DNA of 44,155 nt. Source: Escherichia phage Shashou. Made by a program: the position numbers and the translations under genes. A model generated the notes under the pieces. The model had not been told where the DNA came from. It made no database searches and was given only the letters and a program-made list of their open reading frames with translations. Where the stretch lies: sequence record MK931440.1. One strand, given 5' to 3'. Below, in pieces: positions 17,508 through 42,781 of the stretch (within the stretch, counting starts at the first letter, position 1; each line of letters begins with the position of its first letter).

Positions 17508-18908
17508 ATGAGTGATTTGAGATTCCCTATGTCCCTTCGACCAATAGTGTCGAAGGGGTACTCCCAAACGCGAGGGAGTAATATCTGGCGTACAGAAGTG
17601 CAAGGTGGCGTACCGCGACAGGGGCGTGATACATACTTTGAGCCAGTGCCGATTAGCGTTACGCTCGTCGTATCGTCGCTCGGGCGACAGGCGTTCTATA
17701 GCTTCCTGAACAACATAGACGGCGGTGCGTCTTCATTTATCATGCCGCACGATACGGGTTTAGGTCTCGAAGACCACCAGGTACTTATTACGTCGGACAT
17801 TAGCGACAGCACCGACGATGGTAAAAACTGGGTAATTACTTTCACAGCAACCGCGGAGCGGACTGCGATTCAGGAAGATACCTGCCTTACGAAGAATCTA
17901 CCGGATTTGTTCGGTTGTTATGGGGATTGCTTAGGTGGATTCCTTAAAGCATACGGAGCCGCGCAATCAACGTTTCCACGAATTTGGAGCAATGAAGGGC
18001 CTGCCGGATACCCGCCGATTAACCTTCTGGCGCCCACGCTGGATAGCCGTATTGTGTACGACGGACCGCAGGTTTACTACATCAACCGAAACGGCAATCT
18101 TGTGCAGTCCGCCGTCAATGAATGGCCTCTTACGTTTATTGATGGGGTCGCTGTTGGGCGTGTGCCGCCGGAGGTTGGTGGTCTAAACCTACTAAAAATG
18201 TCAGAGGACTTATCGGATCCCGTATGGGCAAAAACAAGGACTACTGTTACATACGGCGGAACGCAAGACCCTACCGGCGGAACGGGCGCATCCAAACTAG
18301 TCCCAACAACAACCACTGGTACTCACAACGTTTTACAATTGATAACCCCGGAAGCATCTACGGCATACACCTATTCTGTTTTTGTGAAAGCAAATGGGTA
18401 CAATAATGCTATTGTTCAGATCGGAGTATTTGCTAGTCAGGTGGCAAGTAATCCTGTTTATGTAGACCTATCTACGGGGGTGATAACATCAGCTAATGAC
18501 TATTCAAGATGCGGGATAATAGCAGTAGGTGATGGCTGGTTTAGAGTATGGGTGCGAGTTATTACTAATTCCTCCCCGACAAGGATAAACGCGTCTGTGT
18601 GGGCCTCTGACGCTGCTAACAACACGTCTTTCCCAGGTGATGGTGTTAGTGCTATATCAGTTTTTGGCGCCCAAATGGAGAAATCTAATAATTCATCGTC
18701 GTATGTTAAAACCGAAGAAAATTTAATTACACGCCCCGCGGCATCGGCAAAAGTAACCATGAATGGTGCGGCAAGCATTGACATTACCTATTCCGACGGC
18801 ACTGTGGTAAACGTTCCGTCTGTTGACGGTTACGCCACCATCCCCCAAGCGGATTCTGCGTGGGGTAGCAAATATATCACCCGTATTGATTTTAATGTGG
18901 ACGGTTAA
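17508..18908 (+). CDS. minor/distal tail protein with AT-rich C-terminal extension
   Basis: First gene after tape measure; C-terminal half (about 18250..18750) is distinctly AT-rich, suggesting an acquired domain. Confidence 0.6.
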   Translation: MSDLRFPMSLRPIVSKGYSQTRGSNIWRTEVQGGVPRQGRDTYFEPVPISVTLVVSSLGRQAFYSFLNNIDGGASSFIMPHDTGLGLEDHQVLITSDISDSTDDGKNWVITFTATAERTAIQEDTCLTKNLPDLFGCYGDCLGGFLKAYGAAQSTFPRIWSNEGPAGYPPINLLAPTLDSRIVYDGPQVYYINRNGNLVQSAVNEWPLTFIDGVAVGRVPPEVGGLNLLKMSEDLSDPVWAKTRTTVTYGGTQDPTGGTGASKLVPTTTTGTHNVLQLITPEASTAYTYSVFVKANGYNNAIVQIGVFASQVASNPVYVDLSTGVITSANDYSRCGIIAVGDGWFRVWVRVITNSSPTRINASVWASDAANNTSFPGDGVSAISVFGAQMEKSNNSSSYVKTEENLITRPAASAKVTMNGAASIDITYSDGTVVNVPSVDGYATIPQADSAWGSKYITRIDFNVDG

Positions 18909-19789: not shown

Positions 19790-22335
19790 CATTACATTAC
19801 ACCCGTAACGAAGACGGTACTTTCGACCGCGAACGGCACAACGTACCGCCGATGGAATACGTCGTCGCTAACATCCCCGACGGGGTGCCTGTACGTATTT
19901 ACCGTGGCGAGATCGGCGAGGACACGGAAGTAACTGAAGATTTCGAAGCGCTGAAAGAAGACGATGTTTTCCATATTATCGAAGGCGCTGGTGGCGGTGG
20001 CGGTTTTCTGGGTAAACTCCTGGACCCTTTGGGTGTGCTTAAATTTGTTACCAAGTTGATTTCTCCGTCGCAGAAAACGCCTAAAACGAGTTTAGCGAAC
20101 CAGCAGGCTGAGTCCCCCAACAACAGCCTGACGGACCGAAGCAATAAACCCCGTCCATATGAACGGTCGTATGATATTTGCGGCAGAGTCCAGACTATCC
20201 CTAATGACCTCATGACTACCTATAAAATATTCGATGAATCTGGTCGCATTATTGAATACGGATACTACGATGCCGGTCGTGGGTATCTGGACATCAAGGC
20301 CGAAGATATTACCGACGGCGATACTAAGGTACAGGAGATTACGGGGACCTCTGTCGCGGTGTACGCGCCGTTTACATCCCCCAACAATACAAATACCCCG
20401 CAGCTTCTGGTGGGGGAACCTATCAATCAGAATCTTTATATAACTATCGCGTCTAATGAAGTAGATGGAGCCGTTCTTAAAGCCCAGAACGATATTCGGG
20501 TCAACCCAAGCGACACGGGCCGCGTGAGATATGACTCTGCTACAAAAATTGGATACCTGTATGACGACACGGGGGATTCTGGCTTCGCGGAAATATTATC
20601 TGTTGGTGACACCGCGTCGTTCAATAACTTTGACGTTCCGGACGTAACAAATACCAACGGCAACTTTCGTGTTCTTTATGTCGATAACTTCGAGCTGCGG
20701 GTCGACACCGGCGGCGCGTCTAATTGGGCTGCTTTAGGCTCAACCACCTATTCACTTTCCCAGAGAAGTGACACGTGGGTAGGCCCCGTGGATACGTATG
20801 AAAGAACATTAACCGACTGGACCACCTTAAACCGCCTGGAAGTTGAACGCGTAGTAGCCAACATCGCTGCCGCTAACGGTATGTATAAAGACAACGGCAG
20901 TAAATTGCGTACGTCGGTAACTATTGAACTCCAATACCAACTACTCGATGAAACCGGTGCCCCATACGGGAGTATCTATTCAAAACAGGCCGTTATATCT
21001 GGTCGGTCCGCCGACTACACCGGAGTTACTATTTACGCCGACTTGCCCATGAGGTCGAAAGTTAGGGTACGTGCCCGTCGTGTTACCAACCTGGACCTTG
21101 ATTTCGAGGGCACCGTGGTAGACGAGGTTTCCTATATCAACCTTTACGGTCAGGTCCGTGACACTACGCCACATTACGGCAATCGTACCACCGTACACTC
21201 GGCACGTAAGCAGACGCCGCGGGCCGCAGAGATTAAGCAACCACAGTTACGTATGGTCGCCACAGAGATGGTGTACAAATACCTCGGTAATGGTGTATTC
21301 GACACCGTAATGACACCGAATACTCAGGCCATTCAATCATTAATACGTCTCGCCCGTGACCCGGTAGTAGGTAATCTCAACCTAACAACATCCAATATGG
21401 ACAAGTTGTTAGCGACTCAAACCGAAATAGAAAACTATTTCGGTAACGTTGAGGCTGGGCAATTCTGCTACACTTTTGACGACTATAAAATGACCATGCA
21501 GGATATCATCAGCACAATAGCCGATGCTATTTTCTGCACTCCATATCGTAAAGGGCAAGACATATTACTGGATTTCGAGCGCCCGCGTATGGGGCCGGAA
21601 ATGGTATTCACACATCGAAGTAAGACAACAGCTTCGGAAAAGTGGACGCGCACATTCAACGACGCTCAGGTATACGATAGTCTTAAGTTCTCCTACATCG
21701 ACCCAGATACTAACGTAAAAGAGACCATCAGCATTCCCGCCGAGGGCGGTGTTAACACAGAAACGTATGACTCTAAAGGTATACGTAATTATCGTCAGGC
21801 GTACTGGGCGGCGTACCGTCGGTACCAGAAGAACCTGTTGAAGAAGGTGACGGTATCATTCACGGCGACAGAAGAAGGGGTTTTTGTGCTTCCAGGACGG
21901 GCAATAAGCGTAGTTAAAGGTTCACGCGTAGCACCCCAAGACGGTTATGTTATTGCGGTTAATGGCCTTACCCTGACGCTATCACAGCCTGTTACGTTTA
22001 CCCCAGGAGATGACCACTCCATCATCCTCAAGAAGCGAGACGGAGGAGTTCAAAGTGTTGCCGTTGTGCCGGGAAGCCACGACCGTGAAGTGGTTATGCT
22101 ATCTGCGCCACAGGAAGCAATCTACACGGGGAATAGTGCGCTAAAAACTGAGTTTTCATTCGGCAACGAAGCAAGGCATAATGCTCAGATGATTCTTGTT
22201 TCCACAGTTGACCCCGGAGATGACAGAACGGTCAAGATTACGGGTTACAACTATGACGACGGATTCTATAAATACGATGGCGTCGCGCCATACGGCAGCG
22301 GTTTCTCCGACGGATTCAGCAATGGTTTTAATTAA
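19780..22335 (+). CDS. tail tip / central fibre protein (gpJ-like) with gpI-like N-terminal region
   Basis: Long ORF; start uncertain (track opens at TTG 19705; TTG 19780 has GGAG RBS; first ATG 19852); N-terminal Gly-run GAGGGGGF. Confidence 0.6.
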   Translation: MALTLHYTRNEDGTFDRERHNVPPMEYVVANIPDGVPVRIYRGEIGEDTEVTEDFEALKEDDVFHIIEGAGGGGGFLGKLLDPLGVLKFVTKLISPSQKTPKTSLANQQAESPNNSLTDRSNKPRPYERSYDICGRVQTIPNDLMTTYKIFDESGRIIEYGYYDAGRGYLDIKAEDITDGDTKVQEITGTSVAVYAPFTSPNNTNTPQLLVGEPINQNLYITIASNEVDGAVLKAQNDIRVNPSDTGRVRYDSATKIGYLYDDTGDSGFAEILSVGDTASFNNFDVPDVTNTNGNFRVLYVDNFELRVDTGGASNWAALGSTTYSLSQRSDTWVGPVDTYERTLTDWTTLNRLEVERVVANIAAANGMYKDNGSKLRTSVTIELQYQLLDETGAPYGSIYSKQAVISGRSADYTGVTIYADLPMRSKVRVRARRVTNLDLDFEGTVVDEVSYINLYGQVRDTTPHYGNRTTVHSARKQTPRAAEIKQPQLRMVATEMVYKYLGNGVFDTVMTPNTQAIQSLIRLARDPVVGNLNLTTSNMDKLLATQTEIENYFGNVEAGQFCYTFDDYKMTMQDIISTIADAIFCTPYRKGQDILLDFERPRMGPEMVFTHRSKTTASEKWTRTFNDAQVYDSLKFSYIDPDTNVKETISIPAEGGVNTETYDSKGIRNYRQAYWAAYRRYQKNLLKKVTVSFTATEEGVFVLPGRAISVVKGSRVAPQDGYVIAVNGLTLTLSQPVTFTPGDDHSIILKKRDGGVQSVAVVPGSHDREVVMLSAPQEAIYTGNSALKTEFSFGNEARHNAQMILVSTVDPGDDRTVKITGYNYDDGFYKYDGVAPYGSGFSDGFSNGFN

Positions 22336-22347
22336 AGAGGACTCTAT

Positions 22348-24720
22348 ATGTCAAGCGGATGCGGTGACGTTTTAAGCCTGGCGGATTTACAAACCGCCAA
22401 GAAGCACCAGATTTTTGAAGTTGAGGTTATCACTGGTAAATCCGGCGGTGTCGCCAGTGGTGCGGATATCGATTATGCGACCAACGCGGTTACTGGTCAG
22501 ATGCAGAAGACTCTCCCCGCCGTGTTGCGAGATGCGGGGTTCTTCCCGGCATCTTTTGATTTCACTACCGGCGGGACATTATCGACTACAGACCGCAATA
22601 AGGTCGTTTATGACCCAGTAAGCATGGCCTGGTATTCATGGGGTGGTTCTTTACCAAAGGTCGTCCCCGCGGAAACTAACCCGTTACTGGACACAAATTG
22701 GAAACCGCAAACAGACCCGAATCTACGCAATGACCTTGAAAATGGCATGTACAGAACGGACGCAACCGCCGTTAAATATGTCCCTGGGGTGGTTATAGAT
22801 AGCACAACAGATAACCGGGCCGCATTGTATGCATTCCCTGGCAAAGTTTATATCCCAAAAGACGTCCAGCTACGCTGTAATTTCCTGCCAGATGATGATG
22901 TAACAAAATTTACTGGTGAAGGAAAAATTCTCACGCGCGACCCATGGGGTAACGAGCACATTTTCGACGTTTCACTGGCAACTCATGGGAGCAAATACAC
23001 TGCATTCAACGTAATAAACCAGTTCGCTCGCCGCAATACGCTATGTCGTGTTGGTATCGTTGGTGACTCAATCACAGACGGTGCATACGGAACCGAATGG
23101 GTAGCCAACCCAACGGATTCAAACGGGGACCTGTCCTCGACTAATTATGACCACAATAGCAATGGTGGCGCAGGCTCCTGGTTCCGTACCTTCACGGACT
23201 GGCTTAACCGATTTACAAAAAATGGTGCTTTCATCTTTAAAGCAGAAAACTGCGCATCTTCTGGAAAGCGACTTATTGACGGGTGGGCTAATCGTAATTT
23301 CGACCATGGCTTTTTCAAAAACACTGCATACGGGAATGTTCCACCGGATGTCTGCTTTATGTCTATGGGCGTTAACGATAACGGCCAACTGAATACGTTA
23401 GGGTTCGATCAGTACTTATTCCGTTTTGAGCAGTTTATCCGTAAAGCATGGGGCTATGGATGTGCTGTCTGCGTTGTTTCAATGAACCAGAATGGCTCAC
23501 AATGGGCGGCTCTCGAGGCATCAATCAAGAAGCATATTGAACGCCTGTTCCCCGCGGTAGAGTTCCTCGATCTCTCTCAGGCAGTAACTGAGATGTACAG
23601 AGATGTCGGTAGCTACACCTTAGAAGAAATTTGCCGTCGTCCTACCAATGGCTCTTTCGACTACACGCACTTTGCGCCCCTTGGTCACCAATATATTGGC
23701 GCTTATGCCGCGACCAAGGTTATGCCTTATCGCGTCCATAAGGCCACAAAAGGGAATAATTTCCTGCCGGTGTCGCCTAACGATATCCAACCATTCGGGT
23801 ACCCTTCCGGCAGTACATATGACGTTTCTATGGAGCGACTTAGCGGAAATTCATACCTGAATGGGCTTACCGGATGGGGCGTGGTTGAGCCCGCTACTGA
23901 AAATTTAACCATACGATATTTTGTCTGGTGTGATACTTCTGACATATCAATGGTTATTTTTGAACCATATAACCCTACTTACATTGGTTCCAGGCGCGCA
24001 AATACTGTATCAATACGCCAACAAGATACCCGTAATACAGCATATAGCTCCGGTAATATCGCGAGTAATGGCGTCTCATCGTTTACGAACAAACTCACCA
24101 CACGAACTGGAATCCTTAGAAAAGGACTGAATCAGATTGAGATTGTTTACGATGGTACGCCGTCGAAAGTATACCCTCCCGCTCTGTTATTCAGAGGAGA
24201 GCTGAACGAATCATGTTCTCAGAACGCCTCTGTATACTTGGCTGCAAATGCGATAAAGGGTGTTTACGGGCAGGTAAGAGATAAAGCAGATCTCTTATTA
24301 GCGTATGGTGCAGAAACAGCAAATGATGAAGCGCCGGATATGTACGGCGCTACTAAGTCATCAAATGTTCAAAATGTTGTCCTGTCAGCTTTGCCCGTTG
24401 GTTGTGGTGTTGTTTTTTACTACAAACCCACGTCACAAAGTGGAGTTGTCGCCAAGAGAGTGGCGACTGGCATCGAGATCTCGACGATGCTTTTTGGCGC
24501 ACTTACTGTTATCGGCACCTTGACTTGCGATGTGACCGGCGAAGTCATGCTCACAGCCGGCCTGGCACCTTCAGTACCTACAATAACAGTTAAACCCACT
24601 ACCGGCGGCACTGTTCAACAAGCTGTTACTGGTCACTCTGGCGGCAAGATAGCCCTGATTAACAAGGGGGCTTCCGGTAACACAATAACGGTTAAATCTT
24701 CATCTCAATTCGTCATTTAA
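22348..24720 (+). CDS. tailspike / receptor-binding protein with SGNH (GDSL) hydrolase domain
   Basis: SGNH blocks in order: GIVGDSITDG, MSMGVNDNG, FDYTHF; C-terminal third AT-rich; followed by bidirectional terminator. Confidence 0.7.
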   Translation: MSSGCGDVLSLADLQTAKKHQIFEVEVITGKSGGVASGADIDYATNAVTGQMQKTLPAVLRDAGFFPASFDFTTGGTLSTTDRNKVVYDPVSMAWYSWGGSLPKVVPAETNPLLDTNWKPQTDPNLRNDLENGMYRTDATAVKYVPGVVIDSTTDNRAALYAFPGKVYIPKDVQLRCNFLPDDDVTKFTGEGKILTRDPWGNEHIFDVSLATHGSKYTAFNVINQFARRNTLCRVGIVGDSITDGAYGTEWVANPTDSNGDLSSTNYDHNSNGGAGSWFRTFTDWLNRFTKNGAFIFKAENCASSGKRLIDGWANRNFDHGFFKNTAYGNVPPDVCFMSMGVNDNGQLNTLGFDQYLFRFEQFIRKAWGYGCAVCVVSMNQNGSQWAALEASIKKHIERLFPAVEFLDLSQAVTEMYRDVGSYTLEEICRRPTNGSFDYTHFAPLGHQYIGAYAATKVMPYRVHKATKGNNFLPVSPNDIQPFGYPSGSTYDVSMERLSGNSYLNGLTGWGVVEPATENLTIRYFVWCDTSDISMVIFEPYNPTYIGSRRANTVSIRQQDTRNTAYSSGNIASNGVSSFTNKLTTRTGILRKGLNQIEIVYDGTPSKVYPPALLFRGELNESCSQNASVYLAANAIKGVYGQVRDKADLLLAYGAETANDEAPDMYGATKSSNVQNVVLSALPVGCGVVFYYKPTSQSGVVAKRVATGIEISTMLFGALTVIGTLTCDVTGEVMLTAGLAPSVPTITVKPTTGGTVQQAVTGHSGGKIALINKGASGNTITVKSSSQFVI

Positions 24721-24724
24721 ATAC

Positions 24725-24748
24725 AAAAGGCCCCTTTCGGGGCCTTTT
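24725..24748. terminator. bidirectional intrinsic terminator between tailspike and helicase operon
   Basis: aaaaggcccc-tttc-ggggcctttt between convergent genes. Confidence 0.7.
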
Positions 24749-24750
24749 CT

Positions 24751-24888
24751 CTACTCTTCGGATAACTTCTCCAGTACAAACGCCAGTTGCGCATTAGCGG
24801 CGTCTCTCTGTTGCCGTAGTCGTAGAACCTCTTCTTCGAGTTCCTCGATACGTTTTTGCAATGCCGGAATTGGGGCTATGATGTTCAT
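24751..24888 (-). CDS. small coiled-coil protein (45 aa), hypothetical
   Basis: ATGA overlap with helicase stop; heptad-like IEELEEEVLRLRQQ; ends at terminator; not in ORF track. Confidence 0.4.
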   Translation of the reverse strand: MNIIAPIPALQKRIEELEEEVLRLRQQRDAANAQLAFVLEKLSEE

Positions 24889-27350
24889 TTCTTACCTCGT
24901 CTCTTCATGTAATTAAGCAATTCTTCCTGTACAGATTTCTTCTCGTCGGTGCGCGCGGCAACAACCTCATCCAGCGTGTCTTTAGCGACGATGTGATAGA
25001 GGAACACCGGGCGCTCGTGTCCAGCCTGTTTCTGACGAACAGGGCCTATGCGCTCGACAACCTGCAAATAGTGCTCGAGGTTCCATCCCTGACTTATAAA
25101 CGCCAGATGATGCCCTCCATCCTGTAAATTCAAACCATGGCCGGCTGACGCGGGATGAACACATAAGATTTCGATTTCACCACGGTTCCACGCTTCCATC
25201 TGCTTATTACCCTTAGCTCCTTTGGCAAACGCCTTAGCCTGCGGGAATCGCTTAAGTATGCGCTCCAGTTCGTGTTTAAACTGATAGGCCACCAGTAACG
25301 GCGCGCCCTGCAACTCCTCAACAATGGACTCCAGTGCGTCCAGTTTCGTGTCATGCACTTTCTCCCAGTCTTTCGTTGCTTCGCCATCTGGCCCTGATAC
25401 ATACACGGCACCGGACGCAATCTGGAGACACTTTGATGTCTTCGCTGCCGCGTTAGCGGCTTCAACTTCCCCGCTCTCGAGTTCCGCAAATAACTTCTCC
25501 TCCATATCGATGTACGCCTGACGCGCTTTCTTCGGCAGGTCTATTTCAACAGGAACGATAATCGGCGCTTCGCAACCGAACCACTCTGCAGCATCGATAG
25601 TGAGACTGATATCCTTCATCTTCTGATGAATCTCGGTATCCGCGCCCGGGCGAGCGTGATACTCACGCGCCATAGCCGATTTGCCTTTCTGTATCGAATT
25701 AAACCAGCGGTCGGTAAACGCCGTATACGAAGAACCAAGTCGCTCGCCTGCGTCTATAAACCAGTTCTGCCCCCACAAGTCTTTGAGGCCGTTTGGTGAC
25801 GGCGTACCGGTCAGGTTGATAAAACGCTTAACCTTACCAAACGCCACTTTACTAAGCGCCTTTGCTCGCTTGCTGCCACCAGAACGGCTGCGGAACGATT
25901 TAAGCTTCGTGCTCTCGTCGGCAACGATAACTGTGAAAGGCCAGTCGTCTTTGCCGTAGTAGTCAATCAGCCACTCGATAACTTCGTAGTTAGTGCACAC
26001 CACGTTAGCGTCGGACTCAAGCGCCGTGATGCGGCGCTTCTCCGAACCGGTCGCATCTACTACACGCAGGCACGGGAAACCCCAACGTGCCTGTTCCGCG
26101 GGCCACGTGCCAGACGCAACACGCAACGGGGCGAGGATTAACACGCGGTCGTCGTCATTAAGTTGCCCATTACGGAACAGGCGGTTGAGAACCCACAACG
26201 TTGAGCTTGTATTGTGCGTGACAGTGAAGTCCCCCAATAAAAACCTACTGTCACCGTCGATAGTGAAGCCGAAATAATCATCTACGCCGACCGGGGTTAT
26301 GGATTCTATACCAACGTTAAGCACGTTCTTATTAATATTACGCTTCGGTAAATTCTGGTGGCGTCCTCGCACGAAAGGTACCTCAGAAAAATCGCCAGAT
26401 ACCGACACACGGAAGTAGTCACCCCAAACATCAGTGTTTGCGCAACGCTTACGAGTTTTCTTCTTGTAAGCAGCAAAACCAAGAGAACGGCATAGATAGC
26501 AAAAATCATCAGCAAGTCGCTCGCTTACCGAAATCCAGTCAAAACCCGCTTTAGACAAATCGCAGTAACCATCACTATCCAGAAGCCCCGCCAGCAATTC
26601 TAACCGCTGTCGCCGGTCGCCGCATTTGTAACTATGCGGTATATGCTTATTGTTCAGGACACCCGCCGATTTCAGCGCGTGCGTAAACCCGTGCTTCTTA
26701 TGACCTGTGTTGCCGTAAGATATACTCCATGTAAGTCCTTCTTTTCGTATTTGCATCCCATTACGTGCTGCGTACGACTCAAGATAAGCCCTTATTTCCT
26801 TTTCGTTCTCTCCTGATGTTATGGCCCCCGACGACGAAGTACCGTCACCCAGCCATAACCCCATAAGGTACGGAGGCAATAAAGCCTCGTCCTGCTCTTT
26901 CCTTGTAAAATCGACAGGTACCCGCCAACCCTTAAGATACCCATTAGGTCCGGTTACATATTTCGGCAACTTAAGCCAGTCGCGGACGCTTATGTCGAAA
27001 ACGGTATTATCTGGCCATGAACCTTTTGCAATCCCTGTAGTAGTTCGCAGGGATAATATATGGCTTTCGTTGACCGTATACGACTCTCCTTTTCGCGGTT
27101 TAACCTCGTACATCATCTCCCGGCCTCTACCGAGAGACAGTACATTTCTAGGCGTTGAATCCGGCCCCATAAGCACGTCACCGACGATGACGTCTTCTAC
27201 TTTCTTGGTCGTACCGTCAAACATAATAACTTCCGTCCCGCGTTTCAGGCACTTGCCGCTGCCCATACTAGCCCAGATATTGCAACGTGGGTGCTGTAAC
27301 ATAAACGACGTCATTATTTTCTGGTATTCCCTGCGCCTAAATTTACTCAT
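24885..27350 (-). CDS. SF2 (SNF2-like) helicase interrupted by an intein
   Basis: Walker A split as MGSGK | intein | TSSTLW; DExx box VIVADEST; C-terminal helicase motifs incl QVVERIGPVRQ. Confidence 0.8.
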   Translation of the reverse strand: MSKFRRREYQKIMTSFMLQHPRCNIWASMGSGKCLKRGTEVIMFDGTTKKVEDVIVGDVLMGPDSTPRNVLSLGRGREMMYEVKPRKGESYTVNESHILSLRTTTGIAKGSWPDNTVFDISVRDWLKLPKYVTGPNGYLKGWRVPVDFTRKEQDEALLPPYLMGLWLGDGTSSSGAITSGENEKEIRAYLESYAARNGMQIRKEGLTWSISYGNTGHKKHGFTHALKSAGVLNNKHIPHSYKCGDRRQRLELLAGLLDSDGYCDLSKAGFDWISVSERLADDFCYLCRSLGFAAYKKKTRKRCANTDVWGDYFRVSVSGDFSEVPFVRGRHQNLPKRNINKNVLNVGIESITPVGVDDYFGFTIDGDSRFLLGDFTVTHNTSSTLWVLNRLFRNGQLNDDDRVLILAPLRVASGTWPAEQARWGFPCLRVVDATGSEKRRITALESDANVVCTNYEVIEWLIDYYGKDDWPFTVIVADESTKLKSFRSRSGGSKRAKALSKVAFGKVKRFINLTGTPSPNGLKDLWGQNWFIDAGERLGSSYTAFTDRWFNSIQKGKSAMAREYHARPGADTEIHQKMKDISLTIDAAEWFGCEAPIIVPVEIDLPKKARQAYIDMEEKLFAELESGEVEAANAAAKTSKCLQIASGAVYVSGPDGEATKDWEKVHDTKLDALESIVEELQGAPLLVAYQFKHELERILKRFPQAKAFAKGAKGNKQMEAWNRGEIEILCVHPASAGHGLNLQDGGHHLAFISQGWNLEHYLQVVERIGPVRQKQAGHERPVFLYHIVAKDTLDEVVAARTDEKKSVQEELLNYMKRRGKK
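26211..27251 (-). mobile_element. intein with LAGLIDADG homing endonuclease domain (about 347 aa)
   Basis: Begins with Cys after GSGK, ends THN followed by Thr; LAGLIDADG-type motifs LMGLWLGDG and LAGLLDSDG; excision restores GSGKT. Confidence 0.75.
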
Positions 27351-38791: not shown

Positions 38792-38941
38792 ATGGTTACT
38801 TTGATGATTATGGAGTTCGAAAACAGCGCTGCAACTTACCGCGAGATGACTATGGCGCAGGCGTACCACCTGGCTAAACACAGCAACTTCTACAAGGCTC
38901 AAATCATTAATGAGTTTGGGGTAATTGACTATGAATTTTAA
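38792..38941 (+). CDS. small hypothetical protein (49 aa)
   Basis: RBS gagaggagagg downstream of promoter 38732..38760; not in ORF track. Confidence 0.4.
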   Translation: MVTLMIMEFENSAATYREMTMAQAYHLAKHSNFYKAQIINEFGVIDYEF

Positions 38942-39203
38942 CAGCTACACCGTGACCGTTGATTTTGAGGGGCTGGAGTTGCCCCTCCCTAACAACTACC
39001 GGTACATAACGCGCGATAGTAATGGGTTTATTCAGGGGTGGAAGAACAAACCGACGGATACTGAGTTCGGGATGTCAGGAGGAGAAGAGTTGCCGGTCAC
39101 TTTCGGGCATCAGAGTAGCAATGGAGAACTTAAAACGGTGATTCGTAAGTATCGTCGCCGCGATAACACCGGGCTTATCGCAATAACAGGCGCTGTTGAA
39201 TAA
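38931..39203 (+). CDS. hypothetical protein
   Basis: ATG at Met3 of track ORF. Confidence 0.45.
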   Translation: MNFNSYTVTVDFEGLELPLPNNYRYITRDSNGFIQGWKNKPTDTEFGMSGGEELPVTFGHQSSNGELKTVIRKYRRRDNTGLIAITGAVE

Positions 39204-39222
39204 GCGAGAGGAGAGACAGAAG

Positions 39223-39711
39223 ATGAGTAACAAAAACGAAGTATTCGAGTACCTGATTGACCAACTACGGCAGCAGGTAAATAGCAACCCGTACAAGCAA
39301 CAGTGCGAAGACCTGGCGCACGAGGTGTTGTCACTCAAGAATCAGTTACGTGATGCGTCAGAACATATTAAGGAGTTGCATAAGGCGTTGGCTGCAGCTA
39401 CGGGTGACGTAGGCGCTTATATAGCAGCAGAGCAATCTGGTTGCCGTAAGGAAGATACTCAGTACAACGCCTGGAGGCCGCATTATGGTGCACGACAACC
39501 TGTGCCGGATGGGACTATGGTATTTATCCGGTATCGCAACGGGGAGGAGCTGAAACACAGTGTAGCAGCAGAAAAGAGGTTGTGGATTTGGGATGGAACA
39601 TACGCAGACATAGTGGAATACAAGATTGACACACAGGAATGCGAGCACAATTGGTTATATAGTAAACACAAAAGTGGCTTCGTTTGCTTTAATTGTGGGG
39701 CGCGTAAGTAA
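39223..39711 (+). CDS. hypothetical protein with C-terminal Cys/His cluster
   Basis: Start at Met10 of track ORF with RBS gagaggag; C-terminal CEHNW...CFNC. Confidence 0.5.
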   Translation: MSNKNEVFEYLIDQLRQQVNSNPYKQQCEDLAHEVLSLKNQLRDASEHIKELHKALAAATGDVGAYIAAEQSGCRKEDTQYNAWRPHYGARQPVPDGTMVFIRYRNGEELKHSVAAEKRLWIWDGTYADIVEYKIDTQECEHNWLYSKHKSGFVCFNCGARK

Positions 39712-39911
39712 TGACCAGCGTCCTATTTATATGGGTACTGTACGCAGGCCAGTTACAACTAGCGGCAACAGAAACGTTTTACTCACTGGATGCGTGCCAG
39801 GCTGCGGCACGCAACGCAGAGAACGCGCACTTCCTGTTTCAGGATAAGCCGATTGATACTGAGGTGCGCGCGACATGTTCAACGAAACGATTAGCTAAGC
39901 AGGAGAAATAA
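39711..39911 (+). CDS. hypothetical protein with hydrophobic N-terminus
   Basis: Stop-start overlap; N-terminal VLFIWVLYAGQLQLAA. Confidence 0.45.
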   Translation: MTSVLFIWVLYAGQLQLAATETFYSLDACQAAARNAENAHFLFQDKPIDTEVRATCSTKRLAKQEK

Positions 39912-42631: not shown

Positions 42632-42781
42632 ATGAAAATCACAGATATCGAAGCATTCAAAGATGCACAACTGATGGCACGTATCGCTGTCAGTAACCTG
42701 AGCACTACTGTACCAGCGGACGCGTTCTGGTTCACCGCGATGCAGACACTGAAAGCAGCTTATGCAGGAGAGAAGAAATGA
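42632..42781 (+). CDS. small hypothetical protein (49 aa)
   Basis: Downstream of promoter 42511..42539; coupled (ATGA) to next ORF; antisense to track ORF 42617..42808. Confidence 0.35.
   Translation: MKITDIEAFKDAQLMARIAVSNLSTTVPADAFWFTAMQTLKAAYAGEKK

Follow-up and report, generated by a model that had tools for sequence, protein, structure and literature searches.

Locus of the tailspike gene

The window analyzed here, i.e., the whole 44,155-nucleotide (nt) stretch of DNA of Escherichia phage Shashou (record MK931440.1), is the genome of a Kagunavirus (Guernseyvirinae) siphophage, and the gene under study encodes its tailspike, a protein of 790 amino acids (aa). The gene follows immediately after the J-like central tail fibre gene, which ends at position 22335 (Table 1). 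The site after the J-like gene is the usual tailspike locus in Kagunavirus (PMC11990801), and the N-terminal anchor of the product is also of the genus type. The window was 99.9% identical at the nucleotide level to Escherichia phage Sciku (MK931439) over the whole length, apart from a 1020-bp segment which has no counterpart in Sciku. The corresponding gene, CPT_Sciku_032 (QEG06905.1), has the same coordinates and locus, with an identity of 99.8% in nucleotides and 99.4% in amino acids. It is already annotated as "tail spike protein" with the InterPro entries IPR040775 and IPR036514 (SGNH), and no second tailspike or tail fibre is annotated in the Sciku record. Among protein families the tailspike matched PHROG 21878, "tail fiber protein" (E=1.7e-148). 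An initial annotation of the window had proposed a tailspike with an SGNH esterase domain from three motifs arranged in order, and both the 790-aa open reading frame and the motifs proved to be real.

The Sciku record places the ribosome-binding site at 22337-22340 and terminators on both strands at 24723-24750. In the window, the terminator hairpin separates the tailspike gene from the convergent replication genes. A promoter and terminator scan gave nothing above the shuffled expectation, and the same simple scan missed this hairpin.

Table 1. Features of the tailspike gene of phage Shashou and of associated elements, in window coordinates
Feature	Residues	Coordinates	Strand	Evidence or remark
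Tailspike gene	1-790	22348-24720	+	790 aa; open reading frame list
Ribosome-binding site AAGAGG		22335-22340	+	7 nt 5' of ATG; read from sequence
N-terminal virion-anchor region, Kagunavirus/Jerseyvirus type	1-130	22348-22737	+	
Tail_spike_N (PF18668)	71-112	22558-22683	+	Pfam E=6.6e-6, 26.6 bits, cut-off 25
G7C gp63.1 "domain 3" (PF21562)	145-208	22780-22971	+	E=9.2e-30, 102.8 bits, cut-off 27
SGNH esterase domain	~233-470	23044-23757	+	aligned to the 4QNL esterase domain
SGNH block I, GDSITDG	239-245	23062-23082	+	predicted nucleophile Ser241, codon 23068-23070
SGNH block II, Gly306 (in CASSGK)	306	23263-23265	+	predicted oxyanion-hole residue
SGNH block III, GVNDNG	341-346	23368-23385	+	predicted oxyanion-hole Asn343, codon 23374-23376
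SGNH block V, DYTH	438-441	23659-23670	+	predicted triad acid Asp438 and base His441
Galactose-binding-domain-like module (PF21988, G7C_GBD)	483-615	23794-24192	+	E=8.3e-9, 35.8 bits, cut-off 27
Concanavalin-A/lectin-like beta-sandwich	617-790	24196-24717	+	C-terminal
Horizontally shared cassette	132 through stop codon and terminator	22741-24740	+	95.1% nt identity to contig L004
Bidirectional terminator hairpin AAAAGGCCCC-TTTC-GGGGCCTTTT		24725-24748	.	perfect 10 bp; read from sequence
Distal tail protein gp28	459 aa	17529-18908	+	after the tape measure gene; match to Sf11 gp17

Domain architecture and fold

The only strong match of the tailspike among solved structures was PDB 4QNL, the tailspike gp63.1 of phage G7C (phmmer E=5.2e-97 over aa 71-616; 34% identity by BLASTP), and a profile built from the family extended this alignment to positions 57-788 (E=4e-245). 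A match of the family profile to gp13 in 9OCC was rejected as a property of this protein, since it stems from Enterobacter-type N-termini. At the N-terminal end, the Tail_spike_N model scored 33.6 bits on aa 1-130 alone, no match to PDB was obtained with aa 1-135 alone, and the spikes of CBA120 and other phages matched only the N-terminal ~130 positions.

The structure of the monomer was predicted with AlphaFold on an alignment of 56 homologues. The model had a mean predicted local distance difference test score (pLDDT) of 85.6, with most of aa 140-790 above 90 and low values in aa 1-40. In the model, the SGNH domain takes an alpha/beta fold, for which pLDDT values exceed 90 at most positions. 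Foldseek returned 4QNL as the top match of the whole model (E=1.1e-65, template modelling (TM) score 0.77 on the query and 0.73 on the target, 812 columns), and the central domain matched the GDSL protein 4RSH (TM 0.80 on the target) and the CE3 esterase 2VPT (TM 0.67). The model consists of the alpha/beta domain and beta-sandwiches; no parallel beta-helix body was present among the structural matches, and neither a glycosidase nor a lyase fold was detected with the AlphaFold model and Foldseek. At the C-terminus, a lectin-like beta-sandwich equivalent to that of gp63.1 was found, which is probably the carbohydrate-binding tip of the spike. With gp63.1 as the best relative both by sequence and by fold, and with its catalytic set conserved (see below), the structure prediction bore out the SGNH-esterase tailspike proposed initially. 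The protein is a member of the G7C gp63.1 family of esterase tailspikes, i.e., of an already known family, for which a structure has been solved and a function demonstrated.

Conservation of the catalytic set

The motifs GDSITDG, GVNDNG and DYTH follow each other in the canonical SGNH order. Seven residues (G239, D240, S241, G341, N343, D344 and H441) were invariant in the 56 homologues, whose identity goes down to 27%; G306 and D438 were conserved in at least 90% of them, and position 306 was glycine in 15 of 15 sequences checked. Ser241 aligned with the GDS serine Ser276 of G7C gp63.1, and DYTH with the gp63.1 motif DTTH. An S276A mutant of gp63.1 reportedly exists; a literature search gave no match for it, and it was not used as evidence. 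The serine and the histidine, on which the initial annotation had made its esterase reading depend, were present on alignment and invariant. Such retention of the catalytic and oxyanion residues in homologues of so low identity points to purifying selection on catalysis.

An alternative is that the SGNH domain lacks catalytic activity and serves as a scaffold or a lectin, with the spike only binding a glycan or a protein receptor. The Pfam GDSL model PF13472 scored below its gathering threshold of 32.9 on aa 238-448 (E=2e-4, 22.4 bits), and large insertions are present between blocks I and II compared to minimal SGNH enzymes. However, gp63.1 has the same insertions and is active, the homologues retain all five residues of the catalytic triad and oxyanion hole, and Possum gp66, a Cbunavirus protein related to the Pectobacterium phage fibres aligned with the tailspike, is an active deacetylase (PMC9569702). 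Several homologues carry precomputed matches to PF13472 or PF00657. We consider a silent domain highly improbable and retain the reading as a catalytically competent esterase.

Mosaic origin and composition of the gene

The other Kagunavirus tailspikes in the listed records had only nt 1 to ~290 of the gene in common with Shashou (76-83% nt identity), corresponding at the protein level to aa 1 to ~130-159 with 70-80% identity. The Snoke-like phage fBC-Eco01, which is 98% similar to Snoke genome-wide, has a CBA120-type spike instead (PMC9825357). From aa 132 onwards, the gene was shared with L004 (Logan ERR11508782_820), a 47.7-kb contig of an unrelated siphophage with a different replication module, in a single tract of 2000 nt that runs into the terminator; near-identity to L004 begins at aa ~181. 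The same tract, from nt 22759, was 84.4% identical to a prophage of Enterobacter hormaechei (L005). Furthermore, the same body was found behind other types of N-termini, namely the P22 head-binding domain (PF09008), the T7 fibre N-terminus (PF03906) and a tail-collar domain (PF12571). In view of these comparisons, the main unit of exchange is the whole enzymatic body, with its junction in the conserved zone of Tail_spike_N, neck and domain 3 (aa ~97-180).

Within the body, the identity to L004 at third codon positions was 97-100% in aa 301-630, 93% in aa 631-660 and 100% in aa 751-790, and it was 80-83% in aa 241-300 and aa 661-750; the corresponding values for the prophage swung from 33% to 97%. 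The body itself is thus a finer mosaic, with recombined patches that include aa 661-750.

The initial annotation had located the exchange elsewhere, in a visibly AT-richer C-terminal third. The GC content of the gene by thirds was 0.497, 0.475 and 0.458, compared to 0.501 in the window, so the last third was indeed the lowest, at the 8th percentile of 791-nt windows. The dip is mild, however, and the sliding-window minimum of 0.41 (23900-24199, aa ~517-617; 2.6th percentile of 300-nt windows) lies over the galactose-binding-like domain, while the final 300 nt of the gene are back at ~0.50. The lowest values in the gene belonged to aa 471-616 (GC 0.445; 0.411 at third codon positions), and a clearer contrast was seen between the N-terminal anchor (0.513) and everything past aa 130 (0.445-0.482). 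In several close relatives, the galactose-binding-like domain was also among the least conserved parts of the protein (69-76% identity against 87-95% in the SGNH domain for the homologues P0042-P0044), and in distant homologues the identity of the C-terminal domain dropped faster than that of the SGNH domain.

The faster C-terminal divergence, the low GC, the lack of a sequence match of the C-terminal domain to gp63.1 and the patch at aa 661-750 might be explained if the C-terminal third were a separate specificity module, acquired by a recent exchange and foreign in composition, on an esterase core ancestral to the lineage. We regard such an origin as very unlikely. Apart from the position and weakness of the GC dip, the esterase core, too, is foreign to the genus Kagunavirus, whose other members share only the first ~290 nt and in which fBC-Eco01 carries a CBA120-type spike, and the single 95% tract to L004 covers aa 132-790. 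Among the 120 homologues listed, there was no relative that combined esterase and galactose-binding-like domains of more than 95% nt identity with a non-homologous C-terminal domain. Thus, modular exchange as a determinant of host range, as suggested initially, was right in spirit, but its main boundary belongs near the N-terminus, and a compositionally distinct C-terminal module was not upheld.

In the prophages with the 86%-identical esterase tailspike, a gtrA-gtrB-gtrC-like O-antigen glucosylation operon directly follows the tailspike gene on the opposite strand (L005 10413-13131), i.e., a spike recognizing O-antigen stands there beside a seroconversion cassette.

Likely substrate and role in infection

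The data above show the family membership, the fold, the retention of the catalytic residues and the gene's mosaic origin, whereas the substrate is deduced from the hosts of the carrier phages. Sciku was isolated on E. coli 4s (PMC6753286), and likewise Snoke (PMC6776784) and the T7-like phage Penshu1 (PMC6753287). The Penshu1 fibre and gp63.1 of the N4-like phage G7C, which is also a 4s phage, are both members of the family, and esterases of the gp63.1 family are carried by three unrelated phage lineages from E. coli 4s. The G7C enzyme strips the O22-like 4s O-antigen of its lateral O-acetyl group and leaves the backbone intact, and wclK mutants without the acetyl group resist G7C, whose infection needs deacetylation (PMC10743462, PMC6393563). 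The 4s O-unit contains a single O-acetyl group (PMC6393563). Since one host is common to three lineages with family esterases and offers one O-acetyl group, the Shashou protein most likely deacetylates the E. coli 4s O-antigen. As a whole, a gp63.1-family tailspike that deacetylates 4s-type O-antigen and is subject to whole-body exchange is the best explanation of the data, and we consider it probable.

In the proposed mechanism, the presumably trimeric spike would be the single enzymatic receptor-binding protein of this Sciku-like Kagunavirus siphophage, with the anchor region (aa 1-130) fixing it to the tail tip. On hosts such as E. coli 4s, it would bind the O22-like, O-acetylated O-antigen and remove the O-acetyl group, using Ser241 as the nucleophile, Gly306 and Asn343 as the oxyanion hole and Asp438/His441 as acid and base, with the backbone left uncut. 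This deacetylation may be what allows the phage to make its way through the O-antigen layer, in line with the published account of G7C. Host range would then be determined at two levels, by the transfer of the whole body (aa ~132-790) to anchors specific to each lineage and by recombination of smaller patches within the body.

Besides the sub-threshold Pfam score, several points weigh against this interpretation. The identity to gp63.1 of 34% overall is 29% in the galactose-binding-like domain and 16% in the C-terminal domain, compared to 52% between G7C and Pisces, and the protein forms a separate sub-lineage, whose substrate could differ. For the body, the nearest relatives (86-97% aa identity) occur in prophages of Enterobacter hormaechei, where spikes of 86% aa identity are abundant, and in an uncharacterized siphophage, not in 4s phages, and the module is rare in E. 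coli, with 4 of 5426 complete genomes positive at 76-80% nt identity. In addition, a single substitution, R421P, retargets the G7C spike to a different host variant (bioRxiv 10.1101/542787). These features would fit an active SGNH esterase tailspike whose substrate differs from that of gp63.1, for example an O-acetylated Enterobacter-type O-antigen, capsule, colanic acid or enterobacterial common antigen, with growth on 4s being due to cross-reactivity or to another receptor. Yet three independent Kagunavirus isolates with this spike and two other phage lineages with family members all came from E. coli 4s, whose O-unit has one O-acetyl group only; a different substrate is, in our judgment, unlikely, and deacetylation of the 4s-type O-antigen remains the preferred reading.

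The esterase function was already implied by the GenBank annotation of Sciku, and the protein is a biochemically uncharacterized member of a known family. We propose tentatively, with the chances somewhat short of even, that a long-tailed siphovirus crosses the O-antigen barrier with a deacetylase as its sole virion enzyme and with a specificity tuned by patches. If true, the model put forward for the podovirus G7C, in which the virion is pulled down by processive deacetylation, would hold whatever the morphotype. A second esterase lineage, 34% identical to the first, would also have come to act on the one O-acetyl group of E. coli 4s that G7C attacks, and the fine specificity would be adjusted by recombination patches in the galactose-binding-like and lectin-like domains and perhaps also in the co-varying extension of the distal tail protein gp28 (see below).

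Glycan-modifying esterase tailspikes are much rarer in the literature than depolymerases, with G7C gp63.1 being the best studied. The same enzyme architecture on a small siphovirus, attractive for engineering, is available here on the same well-characterized host as G7C, and E. coli 4s with defined wclK, wclH and gtr mutants provides a simple test of whether deacetylation alone is enough to penetrate the O-antigen in another tail morphology. The near-identical cassette in unrelated phages and in Enterobacter prophages is evidence that a host-range module, whose junction is mapped, moved recently between lineages and possibly between genera. The practical value lies mainly in annotation and in the prediction and engineering of host range, rather than in a new kind of system.

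Attachment to the virion

Residues 158-457 of the distal tail protein gp28 matched the distal tail protein gp17 of the Shigella siphophage Sf11 (PDB 9OCC_C, E=1.1e-82). Sf11 gp17 carries an adaptor that holds six tailspike trimers (PMC12724387), and its adaptor-bearing N-terminal part had no match in gp28. The Shashou spike probably attaches to gp28 as a docking platform for tailspike trimers, by analogy only because the adaptor-bearing N-terminal parts lack a match. The low model confidence in aa 1-40 of the spike would fit a segment that folds on its partner.

The large C-terminal extension of gp28 matched, besides Sf11 gp17 (9OCC_C, E=1e-82), the RcGTA head-spike fibre (6TB9, E=2e-17); the authors of the Sf11 study assign no role to the gp17 extension (PMC12724387). 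Positions 18014-18880 within gp28 were 93.8% identical in nucleotides to the unrelated siphophage contig L004, and the same interval contained 6 of the 40 substitutions between the window and Sciku, all of them nonsynonymous (post hoc binomial P=1.4e-4). The extension may be a second glycan-binding, host-adaptive module. A coupling of its allele to the esterase spike was considered and rejected, since phages hz69 and GZMU_E2010 have the allele but other spikes.

Near-identical relatives and other features of the genome

Next to Sciku, the closest tailspike genes were those of Schulenburg (97.7% nt identity) and Snoke (97.6%), both 97% identical in amino acids and present at the same locus and coordinates. 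The spike is discussed in neither of the genome announcements of Sciku and Snoke. Five nucleotides differed between the tailspike genes of the window and Sciku, all nonsynonymous (E250G, Q347L, E514K, R644I and Q697R, from window to Sciku). At aa 347, 644 and 697, the window has the family consensus and Sciku the derived state, and at aa 250 the window is derived; Q347 stands immediately after SGNH block III. An excess of nonsynonymous changes in the spike (5 of 5) was rejected, since the rest of the genome had a nonsynonymous to synonymous ratio of 23:12 (Fisher p=0.30), and the number of changes in the spike was only marginally high (P=0.07). The possibility that the window is a Sciku sequence mutated artificially was rejected, since the differences between the two were mostly transitions and the 1020-bp segment missing in Sciku is normal Kagunavirus DNA.

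The 1020-bp segment absent from Sciku (38849-39868) carries small early open reading frames of 92, 171 and 66 aa and was present at ~93.5% identity in Snoke, Schulenburg and other Kagunavirus genomes, so that the difference is a deletion in Sciku and not an insertion in the window. At 42781, the window has a TGA stop in place of Trp50 of the Sciku hypothetical protein CPT_Sciku_066, which truncates a small late-region open reading frame. The minus strand at 24885-27350 encodes an SNF2-type DNA helicase of 821 aa, split by a large Hint-domain intein that is annotated in Sciku at 26208-27251 and mentioned in the Sciku genome announcement (PMC6753286). A sequence of ~77 bp occurs twice in intergenic/early regions of the genome (5573-5648 and 37502-37578; 91% identity) and produced a cross-match when the window was compared with Sciku.

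Comparison with known systems

The Shashou spike shares with G7C gp63.1 the domain order, i.e., Tail_spike_N, domain 3, SGNH esterase, galactose-binding-like domain and C-terminal lectin-like sandwich, as well as the catalytic motifs, and phages carrying either type were isolated on E. coli 4s. It differs from gp63.1 in its low identity, lowest in the C-terminal domain, in the lack of a match to PF22245, which is listed for gp63.1, and in its extreme N-terminus, which is a Kagunavirus anchor; the alignment with gp63.1 starts at aa 35, and weakly. The carrier is a siphovirus, in contrast to the N4-like podovirus G7C, in which gp63.1 attaches to the virion via the fibre protein gp66. No gp66-docking N-terminus was found in the Shashou spike and, because its aa 1-130 are of the Kagunavirus/Jerseyvirus type, docking to gp66 can be seen as a feature of the carrier phage and not of the enzymatic body.

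The tail fibres of Cbunavirus members infecting Pectobacterium (CB1, CB3, CB4 and Nepra) aligned with aa 96-786 of the spike, C-terminal domain included, at ~32% identity. Possum gp66, from a Cbunavirus that stands outside this alignment, is a proven O-polysaccharide deacetylase (PMC9569702), and the proteins of this group are SGNH deacetylases that do not cut the backbone. These fibres differ from the Shashou spike in belonging to N4-like podoviruses of a plant pathogen, in another type of N-terminal attachment and in their greater length.

The spikes of the Enterobacter hormaechei prophages (e.g., P0010, P0035) and of the contig L004 (P0002) were much closer, with 86-97% aa and 84-95% nt identity from aa ~132, and they likewise consist of 790 aa and are encoded after a J-like gene. 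Their N-terminal anchor, however, is unrelated to that of the Shashou spike (7-33% identity in aa 1-120) and belongs to the type of Sf11 gp13, and the carriers are temperate and have a gtrABC operon for O-antigen glucosylation next to the spike gene.

Finally, the beta-helix depolymerase spikes of other Guernseyvirinae, such as K1 endosialidases and P22-like endorhamnosidases, occupy the same locus and have a homologous N-terminal anchor (50-80% identity), while the body behind this anchor in Shashou is composed of an alpha/beta esterase and two beta-sandwiches, in contrast to the right-handed parallel beta-helix body of depolymerase spikes of the P22, Sf6 and K1F type.

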